Below are positions 3,288-52,400 of a DNA stretch of 64,000 nucleotides, piece by piece (position 1 is the first letter of the stretch; each line of letters starts with the position of its first letter). The stretch covers positions 1 to 64,000 of the forward strand of contig JBEWZL010000017.1 in assembly GCA_045837725.1 (NCBI GenBank), written 5' to 3'. The position numbers and the translations under genes were made by a program. The notes beneath the pieces were generated by a model, which ran no database searches, was not told where the DNA came from, and saw only the letters and a program-made list of their open reading frames with translations. The DNA comes from Vermamoeba vermiformis. Lineage: Eukaryota.

Positions 3288-5311
3288 ATGTCTTCTGATA
3301 AAAAGCGACCTATTGAAGAGACGTCCCCGGAGGATGAGAACCCTGCCAAGAAACAAAAGCTTGAAGAGTCCACTGATGTCGCGATCGCCGATGCAACTCC
3401 GGCAGCTGAGGCAAAGCCAGCTCCTACAAGTAATAATAATGGAGGAAAATCAAACAATAATAACAATAAAGAGGATGATGATGAAGACGAAATAGATGCA
3501 GCAACTGGTAAAAAAATCCCCAAAAGACGTGTTGCCCTTCTCGTCGGTTATTTGGGTGCAAACTTCCAAGGTCTTCAAAAGTAAGCATTTATATATTTTT
3601 TAAAAATTATTACGAGGTTAATCGGTATTATTTGCTTTCGGATCTGAAAAAATTCTCATAACCCGATTTTAATTTCAAGAAATCCTGGCGTTCGCACGAT
3701 CGAAGACGAGTTATTGAAGGCCATTCACCTCGCTGGAGGTATTTCCGACATCAACGCCGGCAATTTACGAAAGGTAAAGAAGATCGCACTTTGATTTTAA
3801 TTCTAAAATCTCTGCAGGTGAATTGGGGTCGATCAGCTCGTACTGATAAGGGTGTCTCAGCCATCGGCAACATTATTGCATTGAAACTTGGTAACTACTC
3901 AAAACTTTATCACCGATCTTGAATTACGCGTAACTTTGCTCACCTTAGTTTTGCACGATAATATTATCGAAAGAATTAATCAACATGTTACTTCCGAAAT
4001 CAAGGTCTTTGGTAAGTATATTCAAGCTTTAATAATAAACTAAGAAAGCTAATTAAAATATTTAATTTTTAGACCTGAAACGTGTCGGCAAACGATTCAA
4101 TCCTAAGACACGCTGCAATGGCCGAACATATCAATATTTCTTACCTACTTATGCTTTTAAACCCGTAAAAAAGATTGCACAGCCCGAAGCAGCTGCGCCT
4201 ACAACGGAAACACCCGCTGCTGAACCTGCTGTTGACGCGACGACTACGGAGGAAGGTGACAAGCCTAAAGTTGTCAAAACACCTGTTTGGGCTGAGACCG
4301 ACGAGCCCTGGGAATTCACCGAAGAGACGCGAGAAAAGATTAATCAGACCTTGAAGCGATACGTCGGAAGTCACAACTTCCACAACTTCACTAACAGTCT
4401 TGCGCCCAAAGACAAGAAATGCCAGCGCATCGTGAACTCATTTGAGGTGAGTCCCGTACATATTATACTACTACACGTATCTATTTAAAATCACTCACGC
4501 TTGATCCGTCGAAGTTGAGTCTTGAGATCTGATATTAACGGAGTTATGATGTAGTGCGGTAAGCCGTTCAAACTTGGCGATCAAGAATGGGTGGCATTGA
4601 CAGTCGAGGGACAAAGCTTTGTGCTGCATCAAATCAGAAAGATGGTCGGAATGATGGTGCCGATCGTGAAGGGCATCGCTGACACCAGTCTCATTGACAA
4701 GTGCTACAGATTTGGCAAGAAGTTCAGCACTCCTCTTGCTCCTGGATTTTGCTTGGTTTTGATTGAGGTAAGACCTCGGGCCGATATTTTCTTGCAAGTG
4801 AAATTATTTCTAAATTGTTGTTTTTAGTGCGACTTCAAACTTTACAACAGAAATTGTGCTCCTCATCCACCAATTGAGTGGTCTAGTATCCAAGGAGATT
4901 TGGATAAGTTCAAAACTGATATTGTTTTGCAACACATTGCCAATCAAGAAAAGACTGATCGACTGTAAGATATCAATTGCTTTTCAATGTCCTCTAATAC
5001 TAATTACTTTGCTTTAGCTTTGACAAGTGGTTGAGTGATGTGTACACTTATGAGTTTGATTATGAGAAGCGTAAGAAATATAGATAAGTGTAATAAGAGG
5101 GCATGCTTACTAATGATTTGTTACAGAGGCGGTTGAAGTGCCAAAGGACAAGTTGTATCAGACTGGCAGCAAGAAGCAACAAAACAAACGACCTCCTCGA
5201 GTATCACGTAATGAGGAAGATGCACTGAAAAACAATCAAAACCAAGTTGCTAAAGATGTGAAGAATGCTGAAGAAGAAGAAGAAAATGAAGATGAAGATT
5301 ATGATGAATAA
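3288..5311 (+). CDS. PUS1: tRNA pseudouridine synthase 1 (TruA family), multi-exon
   Basis: KRRVALLVGYLGANFQGLQ, catalytic RSARTDKGVSA, YVGSHNFHNFT and GQSFVLHQIRKMVG motifs across GT-AG exons. Confidence 0.93.
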
Positions 5312-5404: not shown

Positions 5405-8400
5405 TTAAGATTTGAAATAAGATAAGTCCAGCCCATACTTGGCTACCAACTCATCAATTCTGGCGTCAGTCAGAGTGGTAGTGGTATCTATGCTAGTATG
5501 TGGTGCAGCAGTTCCTTGGGTTTGATCTAAAACCTCTGGGGAATTATGGGATTTAATTGGCTTTGCAGAGCTGATTTTTTGGATTGGCTTGGGTAAGTCA
5601 TTGGTGGTGATAATGATGATTGGAAACTTCTTGCCATGCTCAGTCGTGTTGTATTGACTGATGTCTATCCATGCATCTTCTGTGAAACCTTTTGCAAATA
5701 CAACCTGCAATTTAACCATAAAAATGATATGGCGAGAGAAAAAAGCCAGGGGAGCAAAAGAGAACGAGGGCGCGCGTTTTTCTTATCAATTTATTTCCCG
5801 TCCCCTCCCCCCCGCTTTCTTTTTTCTTTTTTTTTCGCTCCCCCCGCCTCCGTCGCCGCCCCCTCCCCTCCTGCCCCGTCCCTCCCCCCCTGAGCCCCCC
5901 CCCCCCCCTCCCCGCCAGAGCTGAAGAGTTTCTACTCCTGGGCTGAGACTCGTGGACCTCGCCATATACCTCCAAAATTTTCCACTTACTCGAATCCATG
6001 CAAAGTTCGGTGGCAATGCAGCAATTGCTATCTTCAATCGTTCATGTCTTGCTGACATTGATTCACCTTGGTACATTTTGGTTGGATCCAGTGGACTAAG
6101 TGCTTCTTGTAGTGTTGTTGGGTTCATAGATACTTTATGATTTTTTGACTGTGCCAAAAGAAATCCACTTGGCTTTTTTGTCTCATTTGATAGCAATACT
6201 CCAATTGTTTCAGGTTGCGTTGCTAGTGAAGGGCATAGGAGGACATCAAAATGATTGCTGTACTTTTCAAAGATTTCAACATTATCCTTGTCCTGCCAAT
6301 TCTCCACATGAACTTGTGGTGATAGATGAAATTTTGCTGCCACACTGTTGTTCAAATTTAGTTGTGCTACTTTGCTCAGTTGAGAAATTGAGGCAGAATC
6401 TTGTGCCTTCAGTTTAAGGTGAAGATTCAACATGTATTCTCCAACTGCTCCATCATTAAGTGGCACTGCTAACTTAAGGGTTTGTGGGAATTCCTAAAAA
6501 AATTAATTAGAGAGTGATTATTAAGCGTTCTCACCTTCACAAGCATGTTCAAGGGGTATGCATGCATTGCATGATGCAAATAGGGGTCAATATCAGAGTG
6601 TTTAACCTGCACTCCTGATTTGCTAGCAATGTCTGTTGGTAATGCCAAGATTCCAGATGCCACAAGATGGTCAACAGTTGAAATTTCTAGTTCGTTTGAT
6701 TTGCCTCCAAGAGATACTTGCAAGATAATGCTCGTGAGAGACTGATAAAGATTAGTTCATGAAACAACAATGTAAATGCATACTTCTTTGAGCTGTGGTT
6801 TGATGAGTGTTCTTTTATAGTTTGTTGTTATTTTTTTGGCCTGGGAATTTGTTGTTTGAACAATTTTGTCTACAAATTGCTGCAAGGTTTTTGTATTCTC
6901 AATACTGACCTACAATTTAGGTTAGTATTTCATAGGAGGATAAATTCTATAGCATACCCTAAGAATATCAAACAAATATACTGAACGGCCAGATAAGTCA
7001 TTTAGGGTTGTTGCATGCTTGTCTAAATGCTTAAATGCTGCTGCACCGTAAGCATGTTTGATCAAGTTGCCAAATCTTTGAGTTGAATCATCTGCCTTAG
7101 TTTCTAAAATAAATGACTCCACACGTAATCTGTGGCGAGAGTAGAGCTGGCCATCTAAATTTGCAAGCATTGTAGCAGAATATGCAGTTGATACTGTCAT
7201 TTGCTATGAATTCATTAGAATTCTTATTGTGAGCACAAAATAACTGTACTTACTGGCAACTGTTGCCTTGCAAAGTCCTCCATAACAATAGTTAACAGGT
7301 AGAGTAATGAAGTTTGTGCAAAATCATTGGGAACTCCTGGTCGAGGCTCCTTACATCCTTTGCGCTCAGCTTTTAGCCGTTCAAGCTATAAATTTGGATT
7401 AATTGGTTTGCATGTTGGAAACAGAATCACTAACCAAAAAAGCTTCCAATCCTGCTCCTGGCCACTTTTCTGGAGGAAAGTGCTGCGTATTTCGATTGGA
7501 CAAGCTGAAGTTATCAGGAGGTGCAGAATGTAAGAATTCTCCAACAAGCTTTGTGCTAAATTGCTGCACTTTATCATAAAAAAAGGCCATTTTCTTTGAC
7601 TTTGCATAATGAATCATTTCCCTTTTAAAGGAGTCAAATGCCAAACTATTTCTGCAGCGCATTGCAACATTCTTTTTCCACATGCCATAAATTATCGCTT
7701 GCCCTCCATCGAATGTTGCTCGAACAAATGCATTTCTTTGCAGCTCTTCTGACAGGTTAAGTTCAGAAGCTAAAGTACTTATTAGTAGAGCTCTCTTCCA
7801 TCAAAATGTCATACCTTCAGCATAAAAATACTTTGCATATTCAATAAATGTTAGTGGGATAAGGGCAATGATGTCTGTGGCAAGATTTGTAAATGCTTTT
7901 TCTTCTGCATAGTCCCCAACTCCACTGTTGCCAATATAATGGAGCTTGTTCTTTTCAGAGGTAATAATTTTGACAGCTTCTTCTAAAAACATCATGTGGC
8001 AGTCTTCTCTGAAGCTCATTAATATCCCCCCTTTGTCCATGACAAATTGCTTTGCAAGGTGTGTTTTGCCAGTGCCACTCACTACAATAAGGTAAGCTGC
8101 AGTCTTTCACACTAAGTGAGTACATACTTTGAATCAAGTGCAATAGTGATGCATTTTGATCAGATGCAACTGATGTTTGTACAATGTTGCAAAATTGTTT
8201 GTAGTGTTCTGAGGTGCAAACATCTGTGAAGTAGGATGGATCCCAATGAGTGCCCCAAGTCGCAAGTGGCAGGCATCTATGAACTCTGGGAGAAATTGTT
8301 TTTTTCTGGTAATCCACATTGTTGCACAATTGTAGAACTTTGTGCATTTTCAAAACTGTTTGGTGAATGATCATTTTAAGTCGAGATTCATCACTCAGGT

Positions 8401-8930
8401 ACCCAGACTGAGCAAGATAACTGCTAAATGTCAACAAGATGCTGTGAGCTTCACTTTCAGTAAATCCAAGAGCTATTAGCCATGATTGGTCAAGGTTCTC
8501 TAATGACTGTCCAGTTAATCTGCTCATGAAACTTTCAAATTTTGAAGACGGAACTGGCTTGAAGTCTTTGAGCCATTGCAGGAGTTCTGATTGTGACCAC
8601 TCAGAAGCTATATTGTGTCAACAAAAAGTTCGATTGGAACAAGCCTACCTTTTTTCGTTGAGTAATTATTGTTAACGTGTTTGCTTGTCGAAAAATTCCA
8701 CCGGAAAGCAATTACTTTAGGAACTGTTTGCTTACTAAAATTCTATTAATTCCTAAATGAACGAAATATTTGACTTACTGTCGCTGGTTGAACAATGCAC
8801 CTATTTAATCAAAAAATTATTAATTTGCAGCTTGATTTAATTAATTTCAATTCTGACCTGCGGTGACTAAAACTGCCTTGATTCCTTGGCTAGGGCACCG
8901 TTTGCATGGCCTCCAAAGCAGTCGTAGCAT
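5405..8930 (-). CDS. Crinkler/CR-like protein: N-terminal presequence, SAM-like domain, P-loop NTPase and PD-(D/E)xK restriction-endonuclease-like domain
   Basis: Manual splicing gives a continuous frame. SAM-like WSQSELLQWL..LTGQSLENLDQSWLIALGF; Walker A IQMSGTGKT; Walker B-like AFFYDKVQ; LSGR; REase-like GAVGEY..PETIGVLL..LLAQSK..ALSPLDP. Confidence 0.65.
5731..5963. mobile_element. MITE-like non-autonomous insertion (~233 bp) inside an intron
   Basis: Ends GGCGAG...CTCGCC flanked by ATAT on both sides (5727-5730, 5964-5967). Removing it with one ATAT shrinks the 285-nt intron (5705-5989) to a typical 48 nt. Confidence 0.65.
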
Positions 8931-9182
8931 TTGGTATTAGATCCAACCGTTTTGTTGTGTTCTCGTTTTTAGTTGTGTTAGTTTGAAAAACTTGTTCCCA
9001 ATTTAGTCGTACAAACTTACAATCGAATAAAATGAGCACCATTCCAGCTGTGTTGCCGCCGCTATATTTTTCTTTCCGAAAATAATGACCTGCCTCGCGA
9101 AATAGGAGAACAGAAAAGATCGTAAGGAACTATGATAAATTGAATTTTTAAATTTCTGTTCTTATAATTATTCGCTGCCTGT

Positions 9183-17617: not shown

Positions 17618-19278
17618 CTAATCGCCTAAAGTCAGGCACGAGTTACATTCAGCCTCGCGTACTTTTTTGAATGAATCACTTGTGCGATCATAAATCCTAT
17701 AATTTGAGAATGTGATGCAGTGGTTGCAGAATATACGATTACACGTTCTGCAATTAATGCAACACTTGTCGCACCCAGCTTCGCGTTCGCACGTATTGCA
17801 TAGGTTGATTGTAGACACTTGAGTTTGACATTTTTGACATTTGACATGTCCGCTGCAGTTTTCTTCGTGGTGAAAGAGGCACGCCATGCACAACTTTCGA
17901 TTGCAGACTGCACAATATTCCACGCAGGTCTTGCAGAACTTCTGATTTTCACATTTTCCGCAGTGCTCAATATCCAGGTCTTTGTTCATATAAACGAAAT
18001 TTTCCTCGCAATGGTGGCACTTGGCAACCTTTAATCCTAAAAGGAAATTTAAATTAGATCCGGATCCACTGAGTACTTATTACGCTTATAAGCACCTTTT
18101 CCAATGCATCCCTGTCTGCAAACTGTCCATTCGCCAATTTTCATCGAACATTTGCGACAAATATGATGCGAGCAGTTCTGGCACAGGTCACTGCATTCGT
18201 CGCAAATTTCCTTTGGACACTGGTAGCACGTTGTAGAGCAACGGAGGTGGTCTTCGTCTTCATAACGTGTGGTGCATATGTATCGCGGCTTTTCGCACTG
18301 ACATTTGATCAATTCCAGAGCGTGGATGCACATCTCAGAATTGCATCCAAAACATTCATGTTTCTCTTTGCAACACGTCTTACACGCCGAAACACCACAT
18401 TTCTTGCAGTCTTTTGAACATGAACCACATATTCGACGATCACAAGCGGAGCAACGGTTGTAGCAGTACTGGCAGAGCGGATGTGGCCAAGCTGCAAAGC
18501 AATTGCATTCTGGCGCATAATGATCTTCATAGCATTGAAGACATAATGGTGTTTTACATTCTTCGCAGCAATAACGTGTGAGCTGACGGCATTCGTAGCA
18601 ACCGAAGTGGTGCGTTAGATGTAGCAGCTTACCGTTGTCCTTCATTCAAAGTATTAGCCACCGTATTTTCGTTATAAATATATTGTACGTGGAATTGTAT
18701 TATACCTTATACTTTGTTAATTTGAGTTTTGAACTAAAAAGCGGATTTGCGTCCACGATCTGACGCCAAAATTTCTTCTCAACCCGCCTAAACTGTTTAC
18801 TTAAGGCACCAAGTCGTATGATCTTCTTCACGTAAGTTAAATCATTCATTTGCCGGAGCGTAAACAGCAAATTGAAGACTGAGAGCAGAACGTCATCTAC
18901 CAAATCTCGGATCTCCACCTGAAAGCTAAATTAAATATGGAATAACTTAAAATAATTCATATGTTATTTAATATTTCTCACATTAATTTTGAGTCGATCT
19001 GTAAAGTGATGTTCGTAAAAGATAGTTGCGATAATTACCTGCTGTTCTGTTTTCCCTTTTTTTAATTTTACTTCGCCATTTGATTTAATTTCTGATTTTA
19101 TCGTAATTTTTGCTTCGGTTGTAATATTATTCGTTGGTTCTTGCTTGATCTCGGATTCTGTTTTTATTTCCTGCTTTATCTTGCCTTCTTTTTTAATTCG
19201 CTTACTCGATCTTGCTACCACATTGTTATTGTATTCATAATCAGGCACACGAACTCGCTTTCTGGCTTGTGGCTCCAT
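17618..19278 (-). CDS. F-box-like + Cys-rich (CxxC repeat) protein, single-module paralogue of 29918-34639
   Basis: Exons splice in frame: Lys/Glu-rich N-terminus; IRDLVDDVLLSVF..LGALSKQFRRVEKKFWRQIV; KLLHLTHHFGCYEC followed by dozens of CxxC pairs. Confidence 0.7.
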
Positions 19279-21690: not shown

Positions 21691-23681
21691 CTAGACGTTT
21701 AAGTCGGTCATACGACTGGTAATAAAATTTACCCCTTTGTACTTGTCGGGCGAAAATGTCTCTACTGGTGCCTCGGCCGGTATGTGCTTCCAGGGTAGTT
21801 GAGAGGCAATTCCTTGCGAAATTAAAGTACTATCAATATCTTGCAGAAGCGTTTCGAGCCTTTCAAAGTTCTTGAATGATTGGTCTAGTCTCTGCGCATT
21901 GAAACCAGTTTCTGTAAGATGTATTCGAGCGTGCATTGGGCCATCTTTGGTCATGTAGCTAATTGCGAGGAAATAGTCATCTTTGCTAGGGTCTCGCAGA
22001 AGATACGAACCAATAGGATTAGACCGCAAGATCTCTTCTGCTTTGTCACTGGAAATACTTCCGTGATAGAAGGTGCTGTACGCGAAGTAACGTAAGTTCA
22101 GGTTGCAACCTAATCTGAAAGAAGACTTACCAAACACTCGGATGAAATAAATCCTTCACCTAACGAATAATTAGTGTCTTTTTGACCGATCTTAAACTCC
22201 ACTTACAACGTGCATTACGCGCCGCATTCCGCCAAATTTGTTGACCAATTTTATCATACTTTCTAGGAGTACGAATTGATCGGTTGGTTGCTTCTGGTGT
22301 AATAGTTCGTAAATATTCTGCCAATAGAGACTGCTGATGGTTCGCAGCTTTTCTAAGTCGACGTAAACATGAGGGCCCATTCGCTTAAGCACCTACGTGA
22401 CCAAATGTTAGGCTTGAAACCCATCAGTTCGGAACCATACCTGAATTTCTTCCAAGAATTTGCCAATGTCATTACTGACGGTGACAACAGGTGATCCATC
22501 ACTTCGTTTGCGCTTTTTTGACTCCTCTTCGGTACCATCAAGGTAATTTAATCCAGGCACAGTGGCATTGCTCGTGGTTAACCTCACGATGTTATTATTA
22601 TTGGGACCTTTTTTGAGATTGTCCAAAGATCCATCGAACTTCTGTATTGCTATAGTTTGAATTTTGTCTAAAATTTGTTGAATAGTATGCCTTCCGAAGG
22701 TTTTGACACAAGGTAGCGATTCAAAGTCCTCTGGGTATTCTACGCCTGTCTCCAAATCTCTCATACGGCGAACAGATGCTCGAACTGTTTCTCTTGCCGT
22801 TGCTCAAACTTCTCGATTTGAATTAACATGTGATTCACGAGTGTCCCAATACCACCTTTCAAACGGTCCACTTTAGCTCTATCACCGTTGAGCGCTCGAA
22901 CGATTTTCTTGAGTTTTGCTATCTTTTGATCTACCTGTGATGTATCGCTGTTGATCGAAGGTGTGACGCCAGGATTGGAAGTTGCAACTTCATACTGCGA
23001 AAATTCAACAGAATTTTCTTCGTTAGTGTCATTTGTCGGAGACGTATGCTTCAGTTTGGGTTTTGGATTGACACTCTTGGGCTTCTTCGGGGTCTCATTA
23101 ACATAAGGCTTGTGAATAACAAAGACAGAGAGCTGAATTCCGTTCTTTGTGGTCCATTGGATGGGGTAAAAGATTGGCCCTGAGTCGCGAAGTTTAGCTG
23201 GCAATTGTTTGAACTTAATTTTGAAGGCAGAAACCGCGCTGAATTTAGGTGCACGGCTGTCAGTTTCTACCGTCCAATGTGCATCGTCTGGCACACAAAT
23301 AGCTTCTGGTTCGTCAATAAAGAACCAAAACGTTTTACGGGAGTCAACTTCAATTGCTGCATTGCAAGCAATACTACGGCGACGCAACTCCGTCTCGAAA
23401 TTCTCTGCTGTTGCTTTTTGTAGTGATGCCGCGGTTGCGTAACGCAATTCTAACAACACGTCAATAAGGTAATGCAGCTGGCCGTCCGCACTTACCCGGT
23501 GGCTGGATCGAAGGCTCTATGGATTGTTCTTCAAACGAATATTCTGCGTCAACTATATAGTAATTGATAAGCAAAGTTTTTGTTGGAGGTTGGTTCGCCT
23601 ACCCATCTGTTCAGGTGGAAACAAGGCGGCGATGTCATCTGGAACATCGAGGCCAACTGAATAAAATTTCTGTGGGTCCAT
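21691..23681 (-). CDS. Protein with unknown N-terminal domain, coiled coil and C-terminal SH2 domain; one junction (~22760) unresolved
   Basis: SH2: FYHGSISSDKAEEIL..GSYLLRDPS..FLAISY..PMHARI. Upstream ORFs are joined by GT-AG introns, e.g. EIQ|VLK and HPSVC|TFYHG. Confidence 0.7.
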
Positions 23682-24231: not shown

Positions 24232-27200
24232 ATGAATCCTGATCTACCATCGTAGGCAAAATATGACGGACTGATTTTCAATAGCGACAAGACTCTGTCC
24301 AATTTCCGAAAAAAACTGTTTTTTGAATGGAATCCTGATATGAGCAAGCCAGAGGAGGCCGTTAAATTCGCCATCACGGAACAACATGCTGAGGTAGATT
24401 GGAACGAAGTATTTCAGTCTCTCGTTGAGCTCCACTGTGCAACGCCATTTGAATTCGACTGGCGCTCACGAGCACTCAACAAAGTAATCGACATGTTCAC
24501 TGAAGATGCACTCCCTGATGCAATGGCAATCATGAACGCAGAAATGAATGGATCGAACTATCCATTTCCAACAGTCCAACTCGGACAAGCTGGTAAAAAA
24601 TACGTTGTTAGAGTACCTATTATACCTATATTTAATAGAATCTCATCTTCAGGTGGAGTGAAGTTCGTGCACAAGAACAAGTTGTTCAAACTGATCGGAC
24701 GAAAAACAATCACTGAGATCTACGGCGGAAATAATGTTGCAGCAATGAAAGTACCTCAACGCGAGATATCATCGATCAACTACTTGCTGTCACTGAACAA
24801 GCCAGGTCTTCATCTTCCATTGACAGTGATTGTCAGCTACAGCTGCTTTGCTGTCGTCGTTTCCGCACTCATTCCAATTGTAAGGAACACCGAACAACGA
24901 TAGATTATTAACGGATTGTTGTTGAATAGGACAAAACAACGATCGTGTACGGCTCTAATGATGGTGGCTCAACAGTGCACGATGACAGTGAGCCATTTCG
25001 TCAAATGATGGAAGAGATTGGCACATTGTTGAACCTCAAGAAACACGAAATCAAGTCATCAGGCAAGTGGTTGTACACAGCTGGTGACGTTGGTAAGCAG
25101 TGGATTCACGTGGCGGTTAATAGTCTTGACTCATGTCAAACAAACAGAGGGTCACGTCGGTCGCGATCATCGAAACTACTTGATTGATGTTGGTACGTTA
25201 CACTGATAGTATTGAATATGACACTCATTGTGTACTAATTTACAAACAGCACGATTGAGCCCTTCGATGGTACCAATGTCTGACAGGTAAGACGGGTTCA
25301 TGAAGTAATGACGGAGAGCTGAACTAACAACACATTTTTGAACAGTCAAGAGTGGCTTTTCAAGCAATTTAAACATCAGTTTGTAGCTGTGTGGCCAGTT
25401 GCGCTATCTGCTGATGCCTTCTCGAAGTTCGTAAGTGAACTGATCTCTTGTCAAATGGATTCGTTAAGTTCTAAAATTGCTACAGGAAAATTTGAATTGC
25501 CAATCGATGGTAGAAGCCAGCCAGATCGAAATTGAACAAGCCACAAAGCATCTCATCAATGTCGTGGTGCCTCGACTTGCTACAGAACTTGACAACGACG
25601 AGACATTGTCAGATTTCAACGCAATCAAACGGAAGTTTGAACAGACTGGCGTCAATCTCCGCTTCATTAACATTGTGTTCAAGCACATTCAACACAACAA
25701 GAGAGTGAAGTATCATTTGCTTCTGAACATGGCCGCACGTGCACTCAAATCAGACATCTTGCATATTCTTCAAGCACATGACAAACAGAGCTACATGCGG
25801 CCATTGGTTGAAATAGAGAAGCTTATTAAGAACGAATACAAGTTGGACATTGACATTTGGCGTGAATTGTCTTCTCTAGCCAATGCCGACCTTTCAGTCA
25901 ACCAAGATCTAATTCGAACCGTCGCTAAACTTTCTGGTATCACTTTGGTAATCAATGAATCGAAGCAAGTATGCATTGAAGGTATACAACCAATAGTGCG
26001 CAAGATATCTCCACCAACGCCTCTCTCCATCGAGCAACTAGAAAACTTGGTCAAAGACTATGAACGAAACTATCCAACAGCACAAATTCTTATTGAAATC
26101 AAAGAGAGATTAGCTGACGCATACATTGCTGCAGGCAAGTTCGACAAGGCTTTAGAGGTGAATGAGCAGGTACTCAAGCATCAAAGAGTTAACCTCGGAG
26201 AGATGCATACACGAACACTGGCTACGTTACATCATATTGCATCCATCTATCATTCTCAAGGCAATTACGAGAAAGCAAGATATCAATACGAAGAGTTACT
26301 TGACGTCGTTGATAAGAATCTGAAGTCCAGCCATGTACACCGATTGGTAGTGATGTCCAATTTGGCTCTGATTTACTCGGACCAAGGACAATATGACTTG
26401 GCATTAAAAACCTACGAAGAGGCTATGAATTACTACACACAGAACCAAGTTCAGCATCCGATCATCCTGACAATTACGAACAATTTGGCGGTGGTTCACG
26501 ACAACCTTGGCCACTATGAAGAAGCGCTAAAGCTTCACGAAGAAACGTACAATAATCACCTGAATCTTTTCGGAGAAACACCTGGCTTGGTTTCGACTAT
26601 CAACAACATCGGATACATCTACAGCAAGCAAAAGAAGCTCGAGGAAGCCAAAAAATATTATGAAAATGCCTATGAGCTAAGTTGTAGGCTTCTTGGACCA
26701 AAGAATATTATTAGCTTGACAGGAAAGAACAATATTGCTACGATCTTCAACAAAATGGAGAACTATGCGGAGGCATTGAAGTACTACGAAGAAGTTCTAG
26801 AGGGTGAAACTCAATTTTATGGCTTTGACAATCCAACAACTTTGATCACCAGACACAATATTGCCAACGTTTTGAAAGAGTTAGGAGATCCCGACGAAGC
26901 ACTGAAAATTTATAAAAAGATTGTTGCAGTACGAAGACGCACACTTGGAGAAGATCATCCCGACACTATAATGACGAAGAACAATATTGCACTAGTATAT
27001 TACGATATGGAACGTGATGAGGAAGCACTTAAATGCAGCCTTGCGGTTCTAGAGTCTTGTAAACAAACGTTTGGTCTAGACAAAGCACATCCGATCACTG
27101 TTTCAACGATGGATAACATTGCCAATATTTACGCAAAGCTTGACGACGATGAAGAATCGCTGAAGTGGTTCTCGTTGGTGTTGAAGTTTGAACAAGAGTT

Positions 27201-27903
27201 GTACGGAGAATATAGCCCCGAAGCCCTTGTTACTATGAGTAAGATTGGATTGGCTCACGAGAACTTGGGAAACTACGACGAAGCACTAAGACACTACAAA
27301 GTAGTTTATGATCTCAAGAAAGAAAAACTTGGGCAGAACCACTACAGCACGATGATGGCTTGGCGCGATATTGCTGATATATACAGTTACCAGAGAAAGT
27401 TCGAGGAAGCACTAGCAATCTACGAGGCTGTCCTCAGCTCTGTAGAGAAACCGCTTGATGCAAGTCTTGAAGACATCGTCGCTTACACACTGATTCATCT
27501 TGAGCGTTATGCTGAAGCAGCAGAGAAGTTTAAAGAAGAAATTAAGCTGCGTGAAGAGCATTTAGGAGAGGATCACGCTGATACTCTTGACTCGATGACT
27601 GGTTTGGCCATTGCGTACCGAAAGCAACAACAATACGACGATGCAATAAGCGTTTTGAAAATTGTTCTGGCTCGTCAGAAACGATCAAAGGAAAGCGATA
27701 TGGAAGATATTATGGAAAACAAAAACCAACTAGCACTGACGTATTTCAAGAAAGGAAGCCTCAAAGAAGCGCTAAAATTATACAAGCAAGTGCTGAACTA
27801 CCGCCAAGCCTCTGGTGCGGAGCCTGCTGATATTCAAAAAACGAAAGAAAAAATTGAAGAGATCAAAGCAAAGCTCGACAAAGGCAAGACCGAGCAACAA
27901 TAA
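24232..27903 (+). CDS. CLU-domain protein with a long array of ~42-aa kinesin-light-chain-type TPR repeats
   Basis: CLU motifs DWNEVFQSL, PLTVIVSY, IVYGSNDGG.TVH, YTAGDVEGHVGRDHRNYLID, GVNLRFI; then a dozen or more repeats like LGEDHPDTIMTKNNIALVY..EEAL. Confidence 0.85.
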
Positions 27904-29917: not shown

Positions 29918-32900
29918 CTAATCCAAGTCCATGGGATCAGCAGCCAATAGACAATTTGCGTTCTTACTATGGTCCAACATGCATCTTCGACACATCTCGC
30001 TCTTGCAGAAATGACACGTGCTTATGCATTTTTGGCACAGTTTCAAGCCAGGCAATTCCGTTCCATTAGTGACTTCGTACTCGCACTGGGGACATTGGCC
30101 GAACATTCCCCAAATCTTGCGCCGGCAGCTGAAGCACATTTCTTCTGCCGTGTCTATCAAGCAAGCTGTGCCAGGTCGAATCTTATCATCTCGACAACAA
30201 TTCAGCTTGCACTTGCAACATCTTTGGCAAATATACTGGACGCCGTTTTGTGGGTAGTACGGCCCTAGCCAGATAAGGCCACAATGGTTGCATCTGAGAG
30301 AATAACCACTTTGGATTTCAACTGGCCTCAGCTTATCGTTGAATAGGCCACACTTGGCACAGCTGAGATGCTGCCATAAGAACAGTTGCTTGGGTGTAGA
30401 CTAATAACGACAGTTAGACCCTTCATTATTTTGTTTTTACTTACCGCTTGGCAAGCTAGCATAGCACAGTTTGAATTGTAAGGACCAATGCAAATCTACA
30501 AATATTTATTAAAAATTAATTATACGGTAGTATTCTGCCTTGATTACCTTGTCTAACTGCACTTTGGTAACTATTGAATTCCAAAAATATGTCTCTATGG
30601 TTCTTAGTTGCTTATTGACCATGCCGATATTGAGTATAGAAACAGTTCGAGAAAGGAGGGGGCATTCGGTGTCGCAAATTATCATTTCTAAAATGCGCAA
30701 CATGACTTCTTGTGGCATTCGAAGTAACAGCTCTGGCTCAACTTAATTAGCGATATGAAATTTCGTTTTAAACGAGGTAATAATACCTGGATAAGGGAAA
30801 CAGTTTTGGCAAAAGCGCGTGTCTCCAAAGAACGACGAGCATTTGTTGCAGGTGGCCTTTCTACAAATTTGACATCTTCTCGTGCAGCCACGACAGAATA
30901 GTGTTGTGCATGAATGACATTCTAAAGGCGTGCAATCTTTGCAGATGCGACGATCCATCCAAGGAGGGCAAGCACAGCGTAACTTGGCCAATTTGTGTGC
31001 ACAAGTCCGTTCTCCATCACAAACTGTCCAAACCGAACAATGGACGTCTGTTTCTATGCACTTCTGACAACTTTCGATTTTGCAATACTGACAGGGCATT
31101 ACACAACTTCGACAAAAGACGATTGGTTCACCGTCGTCACCAAGACACTCGCATGGTGTTAGTCGTGAGTATTCGTAGCATTCTAAGCACATATTTGTAT
31201 TGCGACATCCGCAGCATTGATATTTTGTTGGTTTGCCGCAATCATTGCAACCGAAATAATGATTAATATGAAGTTCTTTGAGCTACGTAAAAGTGTCAGT
31301 AAACGTTCAAAAAATAATTCAACGCATACCTTATGCTTATTCGATAGCTTTAGCTTTGACGAAAAGAACGGATTTGAATCTACAACTTTGCGCCAGAAAT
31401 GATTTTCTGCTCGTTTGAACTGCTTGTTCACTGAACCAAGTTGAAAAATCCATTTGACCGATTTGATAGTCTTCATACTCATCGAGGAGCACGTTGCCTG
31501 CATTATCAAGAGAATAATTTCGTCGGGCAGTTCAGAAATTAACCGTGGCCATGCGCCAATACAACAATAGCACATGTCATTGCAGCATCTTTGGCATATA
31601 TATTCAACTCCGTATTCGCTAAAGAAAGGGCCACGAGTATACTGGCATTTGTTGCATTCGAAGTACGAGCCAGATTTGATCTCGATTGGTCGTGATTTGA
31701 CGTCTAGCATGCCACAACCCGCACAACTGAAGTGATGCCATAAAAATAGTTGTTTAGGCTCCTTCTACGAAAAATATTAGTATCGCGCGACCACGATTAA
31801 AATAAGTTGTCATACCACCAGATCTAGGGGCATGTAATTCCGTTGGTTGATCGGAATAAATTGCACCTAAAAAAATTATTAATTAGCAAATATTTTCTTT
31901 ATCAAACTTTTTCGTACCTTATTCTCGATCTCTTTTGAAACTATGAATTTCCAAAAATAAGTCTCGGACATTTTAAGCAACTTGCTGACCATTGCCAAGT
32001 TAAGCACGGATATTACTCGGCCGAGCAAACTACGGTCTGTGTCGCAAATAATAAATTCAAAAATATGAAGCAGGATCTCGGACGGCAAGTACGGGATTTT
32101 GCCTACAAACGAAACGTTAGTTTGAATTACGCTGATAATTTTGATATTAATTACTTTGTGGCGGACACTTGCAACGGCAATTGCGGAAACATCCCTGGCA
32201 TAATGTCGATTCGCAACCTTTGCAACTTTTTTTACAAAACCAGCAAACTGGCTGGAAACATTCTTGGCAGCGTTCGAGTCTTTTAGGAAAGCAATCTGGG
32301 CACACAAGCGAACATCTGTTGCAGCTACAAATCACTTTGCTCAAAAGATTCGAACACCAATCATTACCGCAAACGTAACATAAGCGTCGATTTTCGCAGT
32401 AAATACTTTCCGAGCAACTTCGGCAATAAGTAAACAAATCGCCCGACGTATTTGTGCATCCACATTTGCTATTTCCTGAATATTCGTTGCATTTTTGACA
32501 TATACTAGTGTCACATTTATGACACGTGTCACTCGTTGGTTTGCGGCATTCAGTGCAACCAAAATAGTGATTCAAATGTAAGTCCCTCGGCTAACAAAAA
32601 GGACTGTTAGCAAATCTATAGCACTAATATTAAATTCATACCGAGAACTTGGTTGATTGTTTTAGCTTTGAGGTGAAGAAAGGATTTGAATCTACAAGGT
32701 AGCGCCAAAACTTCTGTTCGACTCGTTTGAACTGCTTGTTCACTGAACCGAGATTAAAAATTCGCAGCAAAGATTCCACCGTTTTAGCTCTTCTTGGGCA
32801 GCTAATGATCTTGAATATCTCGAGTACGATGTCATCAGGGAGTTCTGGAGGAATATGCGTCTTAAGATGAACTTCATAACATGATTCGCAAAGTATTTTT

Positions 32901-34639
32901 TTGCAGTCTTTGCACTCGATCTGACAATTGAAGCAGCTGTCATATGTCTCACAGTCGTCGCAAGGCCCATCTAACAGCGACCATTCTTCGTGACACTTTT
33001 GACATGTCGTCCGATGTTCGTTGGGCTCGTGATAAATGATCATGCAATTGACACATAGTTCTTCATTGCATAATCGACACGGGGACACGCACTTCTTGCA
33101 GAGCTTGTAGCCGTTGATCTCGTTGTAGTACTCGCAATGAGAACACTGTCCAAACATCTCTTCGTCGTTGTCTCCTTCAATCTCATCGTTGCACTGAATG
33201 CACTTGATTGTTTGTTTCGTTTTGACGATTTCTTCTTCGCTTGCCTCGTCAGAATTCCAACACTTGTGAGATTCTTTGTGGAAACATTTTTGGCAAAAGT
33301 GATCGTTGCACAAAATGCACTCGTAATCGCATTCTTTGCATAAATTGCGATTGCAGTGGTCGCAAAAGTACTCATCTTTGCATGACTTGCAATGAAACGC
33401 CTTAACTGTGCATCCACATTCAACGTGACTGCCACAGGCATGGTCTCTATGACACACCTGTGAGCGACATCCGCGGCATTCTAGCGTCAATCTCTTTTGC
33501 CCACAATGATCGCAACAAAAGCTTGAATAAAGAACGATCTGCTTGGGGTCATTCTAAAGTTTCGAATACTGCGTTAAAGTCTGTTGCATTAGTACTTGGA
33601 TCGCTATCACTTACGCGGTGTTTGTTTGGCATGTGCGCAAGGTGCAAATAAAAAGATTGTTTCGGCGACCGCTAAAAAAAATGTTAGTTACAATTATGAT
33701 ATGCAATAGTACCAATATGTTACCTCTGTTTGTAAGTTTAGCTTGAGCGTCTGTCGTACGTACTTGGACCAAAACTTGAGTTCCGCAGTGCGTAGAAAAG
33801 ACGCAGCCATGCCAAGGTTAAGTACGTCACGCATACTACTGAGACTCGTTTCTGTTGTCAAACCATGAACGTACTCGAAGACTAGTACAAGAATTTCCGT
33901 TGGCAAGCGGCGGATGCGATTTTCTGTTGTTGGTTAATGAATTGATATTAAACAATTGCGTCGCTGAACTTACCCTTTCGGAGCTCCTTTATTGTTTTAC
34001 GACTAGTTGCAACCTGAAAATAATTATAGTGGTCGAATTGAAAGAAATCGTGGGTTTTTACCTTTGACCAAGTATCGCCCGCGAGGGTGTGTCCTCCAAC
34101 AACATCGTGTTCGGCGCAGTGAAAACAAAATGTCTCCCAACATTGCACACATTCTGATGAGCACATTCTACACACTGGTGCGTGACACGCTGGACACCTT
34201 TTGACGCAGGAACGACAGCGCAGATCCGTAGTTTCGCCGCCAAGGCATTCGTGAGTGAAATCGGGAGCGCAAGACTCACAGATGTTATCGTTACATTTTA
34301 TGCACGAGAATTTGCTTTTTTCTCCGCAGTTGTGGCAGGCCAAGTAATGATAAATGTAGATGTGCTTTGGGTTATTCTTAGAAAATGTCAGAGAAGCCGT
34401 GAAGTCATAAAATAGGCAATAATTACCTTGATCCTCCTGGGAATTTTGATAGGACGTGCTTTTTTAAATACTTTCTTTTCGTTGACCAACGCGCGCCAAA
34501 ATTTGCGTTCGATCTGTCTCATCTGTCGACTGATGAGACCGAACTGCGAAATCGACCAAATTTTATTTATATGGTCACCGCTGATGGCGTATATTTTGCG
34601 ACAAACTAGCAGCAAAATGTCATCAGGCAGATCTTCCAT
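29918..34639 (-). CDS. Large modular protein (~1,350 aa estimated) with six F-box-like + Cys-rich units
   Basis: Manual splicing through ~13 short GT-AG introns gives one frame. F-box-like starts LPDDILL, LPTEILV, LPDDIVL, LPSEILL, LPDEIIL, MPQEVML, each followed by a CxxC array. Confidence 0.75.
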
Positions 34640-49430: not shown

Positions 49431-52400
49431 TTACGCGTAATTAAATGACGAAGGGTGATTGCCTTTAGAGCAGCATTGACCGTTCTTGCCATCAGTAATC
49501 AACCATTGGATAGTGTTCCATGTCTTGCACTTGCCACAACGAACCTAAAAAATAAAAATTAGATCCAGATCCAAAAAGTTGTAAGTTTGAGTCTTTGGCG
49601 TAACAATACAGCGGTAAAATCATAATATGCGATCAAAAAGCAAAAAAGTAAAGAGCACAACACCTCCGATTCCCAGGTAGTCTCCTACCCCAGTACTAAG
49701 AAGGCCTGAACAAGCTTAACTTCGCTGATCGGACGGGAAGCGGTGCATTCTTGTTAGTGTGGTCGTGCCCGAGACGCTTTGCAACATCGTGTTCGGGTCA
49801 CTACTTCCACAACATAACAAGAACGCGTTCCCTCCTCCCGTACGCGAAAGATAGCTTCTTTGTTCAGATCCACATCCGATGTTAAAGTGTCACTTTAGAT
49901 TTAGAACTTACCTTCGATTCTTTGAGATAAGCCAATTCAGCTTCGTATTTGCCAATCTTGTCGCTCAGACCGATCAAGTGCTCGCTCATCATTTGCAACT
50001 GACCCTCGTAGTTGGTACGAGTCGTATCCAGATCTTCTTGCGTATGTTTTTGCTTAGCAGAGAGTTGTTCAAGTTCTTTTTCTTTCAATTCTCTTTCATT
50101 CATCATTTGCTTAAGCTTCTCTTCGAGACTTTGTTTCTTCTTGAACAGATCCATTGCTTTTTTATCGGCAACTTGAAGCTGAGAAATATATTGATTGTAT
50201 TTCTCTTCGTAATATTTTTTCAACTCTTCTTCTCGCTTCTTATCATCTTCCGATAAGTTCAATGACTAAATAAAACACCGGATTAATTTTCAGTGAAACA
50301 AACTCGTTGTGGATCTTACGTTTGATTGTTTGCCAGCTTCGTCCATAACAGTCAGATTCCAGCCATTTTGTTTTGGAACTTCCGAGCTCGCCTTTGGTAA
50401 GGTATTCTAAAAATAGAAATAAAGCTCGTTAATATCACTGTTAGCGGATGTGGCCCAAAGTCCATGACTCACCGTGGGTTCGGGTGTGGCTTGCTGTTGA
50501 TTTCCGAAGAAGTCAAGCAGGGCCTGTTCAGCTGTTGGTGCACCAGTAACATTGTTAGCAGGTACAATCGGTCGCGGGACTTGAGGGCTAGGCTGTGCTG
50601 AAGAGACGTTGGATCCGGTCAGCAGATCATTTGAGAACGGATCGAAGACCATTGAGCTGTGACGCGACGACAGTGATGTGTTTGTCGTAGAGAGTGGCGA
50701 CTATACGAATATTAGTAAGTATTCGACGCTAGAGGAACAAATGTATGCTGGAAAAATTGTGCAAGATCTGCTACTCCGAGCGGATCCACGAACTCAAGAT
50801 CTACAAAAGATTGAATATTGGAATTAGGGTTACTTACGGTAGCAGTAGAAGGAGTATCAAAGTCCATAAATGAGATCAAGTCAGGTTGGATCTGAGGCAC
50901 GACAGGGGACGGTTCTGACTTTTTGGCGGGTTGATCCAAGGTAGCAAAATCAATTAAACCTTCGTTAATAGTACCACTAGTCTTAAGCGTATTAGGCTCT
51001 TCACCATTATCGGGACTAGCTTGATGATCTTGCTTCTCGGATGCGTTTTGTTGATCGGCAGCAGGACGAGGAGTGTTGTTCAAACTTTGAGCAGCCGATA
51101 GGGCAGTATTAGCACTGATCAAATTGTTCTTCAAATCAACAATTTGTTGGTCTTTAGCTTTGCTCTTGTTAATCTCTTCTTGGTACAAAGTTGTCTAAAG
51201 AAAAAATTAGGTTAAAAATAAAATTGATAAAATTTTGTAACGGAACTTACACTTTGTTGCAATTTCTTTCTAGTATCAGCAAGCTCCGCCAACAACTCAT
51301 TTAATTGCGATTGTTTAGCATTGAACGAGTCCTGTTGAAAATTCATTCGTTATTATGGCGTACTCTGATAATGAATATTAAACGTACTCTAGAGGCCGAG
51401 AGATCTTCGATTAATTTTTGTTTTTCTTGGACTAACTTCTGGATCTCGCTGTTTAAGCTCTCAATCGTAACTTTGAACTTGGCATTCTGTTCTAACAGCT
51501 CTTTAATAGTCTCAACGTGCTGCAATTGTTCTTCGTATGAGATTGAAGGTCGCTCGGGTATCTCATTAATATTTTGAAGGAACTTCGACGATCGTTTTTG
51601 AAGATCCGCGATCTCGAACTGACCTTGCTCGTATTTTACCTTCATCGCTGTTAGTATACTCTTGTATATTATGCCACTATATTCCTTACATTTACTCCAC
51701 GAACCAGGAAGTGACCAGGCGTAACTAGCAATTCACACAGGGTGGTAATGGATGTGCTGAAGTTGTCTACCAAGTACGTCAGATCCATCAAGATAAATTA
51801 CGCGAGTTTGGAATTTACCTAATTGGGCAACTATTCTTGACAGATTAGAAATGATGGTATTATTGATCTTCTTCACGTCTCCCATAATAAACAGGTCGCT
51901 TTGTTCCGCTTTCACTTGGATCGTGTATTGCGCGTGCATTTCTGAAGTGGCAATAATTAGTATAGTCCGATCGAGTACATGTATCGAACGTACCTCTCAA
52001 GTTGTTTAAAATCACGGTCAATTGGGATTGGAACTGCTTTACGATGGGCAGCAGCTTGACTCGATTTACAATATTATCGTCAGCTAAAAATAGCAAGTGT
52101 CAATTGAATTTCCTTAGTGTAGCATAACCGTGATGATATTACTTGGGAACATGTTAATTAGGACTTGAAGGAGCTTGTCAAGATTGTTTGCGAGCTGTTT
52201 GTAGGTCAAAGCCAATGCCTCGCTAGATCGCTGTTGCTCTTCATTTTCCTCGGCTTTAACGTTCTCTTGGAACCTATTTAATTCATCGTATCATTATAAT
52301 AGATCTCGGAGTAACTATTATCCTATTCAATACCTCTTTTGTTCACTCGTGCAAAGGTTTTGGAATGACAAGACTAAAGTTCTAAAGTTCTCGATAATTG

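Follow-up and report, generated by a model that had tools for sequence, protein, structure and literature searches.

A spliced 925-codon gene of Vermamoeba vermiformis for a probable member of an unannotated family of multidomain P-loop NTPases

The first 64,000 nucleotides (nt) of contig JBEWZL010000017.1 of Vermamoeba vermiformis (assembly GCA_045837725.1; this whole stretch is called the window below) carry on the minus strand, from 8930 to 5405, a spliced gene of 12 exons whose 925 codons remain open in the joined frame when the window sequence is spliced. The gene is intact and real as read, and the account that best fits the evidence, and is probably correct, is that of a single-copy nuclear gene in a compact, gene-dense region, encoding a 925-residue member of a small, fast-evolving and unannotated family of multidomain P-loop NTPases. 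In a protein of this kind, the SAM-like helical domain that follows a basic leader would serve self-association or adaptor binding, and the NTPase would work as a nucleotide-dependent switch, with the window copy probably binding ATP and hydrolysing it poorly. The switch would control a C-terminal domain for which a PD-(D/E)xK nuclease is one candidate activity, and, should the ATG at 8930 be the true start, the leader could direct the protein to mitochondria. The original prediction for this locus had described a Crinkler-like protein joining SAM-like, P-loop and restriction endonuclease-like (REase-like) domains behind an apparent mitochondrial presequence.

All 11 introns of the gene are of the GT-AG type, 10 of them 41-57 nt long and the other 285 nt. 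The three small exons at the 5' end join, letter for letter, into the 60-residue leader that had been predicted. Exon 1 (8858-8930, 73 nt) begins at ATG 8930, which has A at -3 and an in-frame stop three codons upstream; it encodes leader residues 1-24, the most presequence-like part, and ends at the donor GTCAGA. Exon 2 (8779-8800, 22 nt), entered through the acceptor ..AAATAG and left through a GTAAGT donor scoring 8.7, is needed for the frame between exons 1 and 3, and exon 3 (8649-8734, 86 nt) supplies the acid-free, basic residues 32-60. Exon 4 (8128-8607) starts with a helical, SAM-like N-domain at about 8605-8414 and continues with a linker and the strand preceding the P-loop. The P-loop string crosses the junction of exons 4 and 5 as had been claimed, and the Walker A loop SGTGKT (8062-8079) lies at the start of exon 5 (7815-8081), which continues with a helix and the conserved block LIPLTFIEYAKYFY. 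Exon 6 (7435-7769) contains a helical insert and the Walker B strand AFFYDK (7570-7587), exons 7-10 (7385-7254, 7203-6958, 6909-6784 and 6741-6535) encode a middle region, and exon 11 (5990-6493) encodes the C-terminal domain, with candidate nuclease strings at 6247-6143. The long intron 11 (5705-5989) precedes exon 12 (5405-5704), which provides the last strands, a tail rich in Ser, Thr and Pro, and the stop codon at 5407-5405.

The coding signal agrees with this model. A codon-usage score trained on the other long open reading frames (ORFs) of the window gives 0.13 bits per codon for the whole gene in the proposed frame, as against -0.13 and -0.22 in the other two frames, and in every exon of at least 24 codons the proposed frame outscores both others. 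Off-frame scores lie overall between -0.13 and -0.24, and introns between -0.46 and -0.53. The signal extends to both ends of the gene: exon 3 scores 0.12 bits per codon in frame (-0.10 and -0.29 out of frame), exon 12 scores 0.06 (-0.21 and -0.28), and the leader as a whole scores 0.10, which exceeds 98% of off-frame windows.

The assignment to an NTPase family comes from exons 5-6. An exhaustive HMMER search with this region against 1.84 billion representative proteins returned eight matches at E<=0.001, two of which represent one sister copy, 87-89% identical to the window, the others being 32-59% identical. The matches are short, unnamed ORF fragments on Logan, NCBI or JGI/IMG contigs, and at least five divergent relatives are present in public data. 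Several of the fragments have their start or end at positions that coincide with introns of the window gene, which fits intron-bearing eukaryotic genes. In the sister copy it is the exonic parts that are 87-89% identical, and the read-through intron tails differ; at intron 11 its ORF breaks right after the same residues as the window does. The motif GxGK[ST] is kept in all five sequences that cover Walker A, and the exon 5 block is common to the relatives. At Walker B, four of the five covering sequences, including the 87%-identical sister, have Asp-Glu followed by His or Gln, the relatives reading YDEAH, YDEVH or FDEIH. These sequences probably define a lineage-restricted, unannotated P-loop NTPase family.

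The GxGK[ST] loop and the hydrophobic, DE-terminated strand lie about 150 residues apart and flank a helical insert. An AlphaFold model of exons 5-6, with a mean predicted local distance difference test score (pLDDT) of 60, places two short strands at the expected positions with about 130 residues of helices between them; strand 1 is missing, and neither Foldseek nor VIA gave a meaningful match for the model. The P-loop claim of the original prediction thus stands as far as the loop conserved in five of five sequences is concerned, but gained no significant P-loop profile or fold match. Wider searches returned no further relatives: comparison of the NTPase alignment with longer proteins gave no significant hit among 8000 candidates scored, and in a search for loci of relatives with a tighter alignment none of 70 metagenome, 18 prokaryote-genome and 65 viral pattern matches was confirmed, nor was any of the 516 pattern matches obtained through P0015.

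The Walker B sequences of the relatives also bear on a different reading of the protein, namely a helicase- or translocase-like motor (GxGKT together with DE[AV]H, of the SF1/SF2 or Schlafen-group-3 type) in which the C-terminal region would be a second motor or a substrate-binding domain. The family shares with ASCE P-loop NTPases having a DExH Walker B (SF1/SF2 helicases, Schlafen group 3, PF09848, and AAA_22, PF13401) the GxGKT loop and, in the relatives, a hydrophobic strand that ends in DE[AV]H. One relative, P0004, gave matches near Walker B to SLFN-g3_helicase (E 0.014), AAA_34 (E 0.019) and AAA_22 (E 0.16), all of them below the curated cut-offs, in one of nine proteins scanned and with none on the window's own sequence. 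The family differs from the ASCE group, however, in the roughly 130 helical residues between the strand after the P-loop and Walker B, in Gln at the first Walker A position and in having no match at a curated cut-off, and no helicase C-terminal family of Pfam was found in exons 7-12. A motor of this type is considered unlikely, and a nucleotide-dependent switch within an unannotated NTPase family is preferred.

The N-terminal leader has the composition that had been attributed to it. Its 60 residues include 12 Lys or Arg, eight Ser or Thr and no Asp or Glu, and no acidic residue occurs before position 63. The probability of 62 residues in a row without an acidic one is about 0.001 at the Asp/Glu frequency of the rest of the protein, in which the next longest run is 31. 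The helical hydrophobic moment of residues 1-11 (0.85) is the highest in the protein, and over 18 residues the best value is likewise at the N-terminus, 0.64 as compared with a maximum of 0.53 elsewhere. Presequence-type composition and an amphipathic start are thus present, conditional on ATG 8930 being the start, and mitochondrial import is a plausible prediction from the composition of the leader alone. The string RWNFSTS, which had been called cleavage-like, does not fit the R-2/R-3 rules for presequence cleavage. A signal peptide was also considered and rejected, residues 6-25 having a mean Kyte-Doolittle value of about -0.07 (calculated by hand) and a hydrophobic run of only about 10 residues.

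Where the protein begins is less settled than the leader composition. Enumeration of splice paths showed that only two ATGs, at 8930 and 9042, can reach exon 4 on an open path. The second stands in a strong context, with G at both -3 and +4, and 22 nt beyond it comes a consensus GTAAGT donor whose phase suits exon 2, so that 9015-9042 on the minus strand could be a rival first exon or an upstream ORF. If translation started there, or if 9042-9020 were a short upstream ORF or belonged to an intron of the 5' untranslated region, the basic stretch would be a linker or a nucleic-acid-binding tail, and the protein would be cytosolic or nuclear. Among the 15 open paths to exon 4 with the best scores, 14 begin at ATG 9042, and no exon has a lower coding score than exon 1 (0.04 bits per codon), whose donor and acceptor scores are also the weakest within the leader. 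The path from ATG 8930 nevertheless ranks second of 3397 open paths and is the sole member of the top 15 with all introns within 41-57 nt: 13 of the 14 rival paths need an intron outside that range, and the remaining one combines a 58-nt intron with a 95-nt upstream exon. Upstream of the gene, all three frames have non-coding scores (-0.14 to -0.22). Because the splice matrices were built from just eight introns, the ranking of paths is not decisive, nor are score differences of less than 1 bit. Thirteen of the 15 best paths keep exon 3 unaltered, and 14 use its donor. Exon 3 is thus the robust part of the leader and exon 1 the weak point; of the predicted leader exons, exon 3 is solid, but exon 1 is not the sole possible first exon. 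On balance ATG 8930 is somewhat favored as the true start, and the alternative N-terminus is a possibility of clearly lower standing that deserves to be kept in mind.

The helical domain after the leader is SAM-like only in the sense of a lead. Searches of exon 4 against Pfam gave no SAM family even at E<=10, with SAM_1, SAM_2 and related profiles all unmatched, and the best match was Ish1 (E 0.008-0.023) on exon 4 residues 2-20. The sole pointer to SAM is a language-model Atlas, restricted to named clusters, in which SAM clusters came first at 0.83, 0.82, 0.81 and 0.79 and nine of the 10 best named matches fell in one family or clan, all of these values being below the lead threshold of 0.9. 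The SAM domain of the original prediction therefore found no support in Pfam. Prediction of self-association for two copies of the SAM-like piece scored 0.00, which amounts to no answer. The Atlas neighbors come mostly from Mucoromycota.

The middle region and the C-terminal domain are equally without annotation. Neither exons 7-10 nor exon 11 matched a family in Pfam, NCBIfam, PADLOC or PHROGs. Comparison of exon 11 with longer proteins gave nothing significant among 752 candidates, and comparison with proteins of near length gave one match among 51 candidates, which was the sister copy. Sequence searches of the PDB returned no matches, or only weak chance ones such as the Nup35 RRM (E 0.02) and MJ0927 (E 0.96). 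The strings behind the predicted "E..PE..QSK" motif do occur in exon 11, where the acidic-x-Lys pattern can be read as D..ExK and as PE..QSK; both strings are kept in the sister copy, which has Pro-Asp where the window has Pro-Glu. When the 168-residue exon 11 piece was shuffled, however, D..[DE]xK appeared in 49% of the shuffles and P[DE]..[DEQ]xK in 17%, and the nuclease-like motifs are thus at chance frequency. The REase-like domain that had been proposed gained no support from profiles, PDB sequences or the fold model, and stands as a candidate. The absence of any REase or NTPase profile match in the four libraries weakens the original claim without refuting it, as these libraries do not include the profiles of Zhang et al. 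2016 for Crinkler-RHS-type (CR) proteins.

Several observations weigh against the reading of the gene as an intact, working member of an NTPase family. The whole protein is without a significant match in Pfam, NCBIfam, PADLOC or PHROGs, with no SAM, Crinkler, REase or P-loop family found there, and the strict Walker A pattern [AG]x4GK[ST] is absent, Gln occupying the first position. The AlphaFold model of exons 11-12 (pLDDT 29) is unusable, the splice paths favor ATG 9042 as described above, and no splice joint within the gene was seen in three RNA runs, which derive from a lineage about 10% diverged. The window copy, finally, alone reads Asp-Lys at Walker B (7570-7575, the Lys codon being AAA at 7572-7570), the Asp being kept and Glu replaced by Lys, and for that reason may be inactive or decaying.

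The last of these points can be weighed more closely. Since the sister and the other relatives have Asp-Glu where the window has Asp-Lys, the catalytic glutamate appears to have been lost in the window copy, which looks like a natural hydrolysis-deficient variant. A stronger interpretation is that the copy is a non-functional or regulatory-only allele or paralogue heading to decay, with ATP hydrolysis lost and the gene perhaps unexpressed. The contrast with the 87%-identical sister and three more distant relatives is in keeping with this, as is the unusual G-rich, low-complexity insertion in the 285-nt intron. Against decay, 925 codons are open across 12 exons, the splice sites are intact and every part of the gene has coding-like codon usage; in other NTPases, furthermore, mutants of the Walker B Glu usually retain nucleotide binding. 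Decay is regarded as improbable, and an intact gene whose product probably binds ATP and hydrolyses it poorly remains the preferred account.

The RNA data are uninformative here. The three runs carry the same species label and were aligned at 90% likeness, with about 13 million records read per run. They placed 112, 137 and 45 reads, of which 107, 133 and 44 were only partly aligned, and read depth was found in 6, 8 and 5 of 30 bins, nearly all of it on an exon of the neighboring gene (5000-5150) and on a low-complexity tract (5755-5905). Reads on the last exons of that neighbor (5018-5070, plus strand) show five fixed differences within 5035-5063, and the flanking exon sequence differs too; the fixed differences indicate that the RNA was made from a lineage about 10% diverged. 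For this reason the lack of reads says nothing on expression of the gene. The species label seems to cover lineages about 10% apart. The tract in intron 11 (about 5795-5916), G-rich on the sense strand and thus C-rich on the plus strand in a window of about 40% GC, accounts for the 285-nt length of that intron and could be an assembly artefact. Reads carrying long unaligned ends of poly-T or poly-C accumulate there, probably as a low-complexity artefact.

The order of parts in the protein resembles that of Crinkler-type NTPase-nuclease proteins, and it is in part order only that a candidate likeness can be drawn. The CR effectors of Zhang et al. 2016, as described in excerpts of PMC5289972, PMC11342252 and PMC6131194, have a variable header followed by an ATPase and then a domain of the restriction-endonuclease fold, and are often tied to mobile elements (excerpts of PMC5289972 and PMC11342252); headers other than the Crinkler header can also occur (excerpt of PMC5289972). 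The window protein would compare with these in its variable N-terminal header, leading ATPase, middle region and C-terminal domain with readable acidic-x-Lys strings, and the family would compare in its patchy, lineage-restricted distribution and fast divergence. Unlike Crinklers, the spliced protein has no match to LxLFLAK-like, loose LFLAK or HVLVxxP patterns in a regular-expression search, a result that does not exclude the wider CR class, and exon 4 has no Pfam match to a Crinkler family. The Crinkler-like label of the original prediction is thus left with neither a header motif nor a Crinkler match in Pfam, NCBIfam, PADLOC or PHROGs. The family also departs from CR effectors in that no link to an REase or NTPase family was detected by sequence or fold, and in the window the gene shows neither transposon context nor multiplicity. 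No terminal repeats flank it and no second copy or paralogue occurs within the 64 kb, and on these grounds a transposon-borne copy was rejected.

These comparisons bear directly on the interpretation put forward at the outset by the original prediction, that a Crinkler/CR-type SAM-NTPase-REase may be imported into mitochondria (or aimed at an endosymbiont), where it would act as a conflict or cell-death nuclease and cut the nucleic acid of the organelle. The coding-like leader, with its presequence-like composition and amphipathic start, is compatible with such an enzyme, as are the placement of the NTPase before the candidate nuclease, the order given for CR effectors in the excerpts of PMC5289972 and PMC11342252, and the D..ExK and P[DE]..QxK strings kept in the sister copy. 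Set against these are the absence of an REase, Crinkler or CR-like match in the libraries, PDB sequences or fold comparisons, motifs at chance level, the missing LxLFLAK and HVLVxxP, the lack of mobile-element marks or extra copies within the window, an ambiguous start exon and the lost Walker B Glu of the window copy. The nuclease and Crinkler calls are unsupported, an organelle-directed death nuclease is speculation, and the imported effector as a whole is judged quite unlikely.

A second system offers a parallel of logic. SARM1 combines a mitochondrial targeting sequence, an ARM region, two SAM domains and a TIR NADase, and the role of its mitochondrial pool is stated as unclear (excerpt of PMC12165793). 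If the original prediction were right, the window protein would likewise carry a mitochondrial targeting stretch at its N-terminus, together with a SAM-type module for oligomerisation and a destructive C-terminal enzyme restrained by the remainder of the protein. It differs in having a P-loop NTPase in place of ARM or TIR and in showing no sequence similarity to SARM1, and SAM is here a lead only; SARM1 is thus a useful analogy and not a relative. The most far-reaching form of the proposal, a SAM-bearing, NTP-gated nuclease that a eukaryote sends into its own mitochondria, built from Crinkler-type parts on SARM1-parallel logic and belonging to a family without annotation anywhere, is held to be very doubtful. 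What is preferred remains the unannotated multidomain NTPase with a leader that may be a presequence.

The neighbors of the gene are ordinary. A convergent gene has its stop 94 nt away, and 253 nt separate the gene from a P450 gene that lies upstream on the same strand; other ORFs of the window match ordinary cellular families (P450, aldo-keto reductase, SH2, CLU-TPR and an arginyl-tRNA-synthetase DALR domain). Among these, the SH2-domain ORF is at 21691-22155 on the minus strand (E 4.6e-08); an SH2 domain speaks against a fungal source of the DNA, although the Atlas neighbors are mostly from Mucoromycota. On the plus strand, 24256-27903 holds a CLU domain and, after it, a TPR_12/TPR_10 ORF of 811 residues. 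A single, complete 5S rRNA gene (49652-49770, minus strand, 104.7 bits) stands among protein-coding genes, and no tRNA gene was found in the window. On the minus strand, 17618-18645 and 29918-34463 hold long ORFs that are rich in Cys and repeat a CxxC spacing. Some of them have a C-terminal block in common, and the series looks like a local tandem family; two of the ORFs (18049-18645 and 32636-33553) matched no Pfam family at E<=0.001.

In summary, the present value of these results is modest and consists of a clean gene model, a defined family signature and the Glu-to-Lys change in the window copy. Current profile libraries miss the NTPase family entirely, and the eight matches among 1.84 billion representatives are all unnamed fragments. 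If the motifs have been read rightly, the gene adds an unannotated, lineage-restricted clade to the multidomain P-loop NTPases, and if the leader were in fact a presequence and the C-terminus a nuclease, the protein would be an unusual conflict-type enzyme aimed at an organelle.

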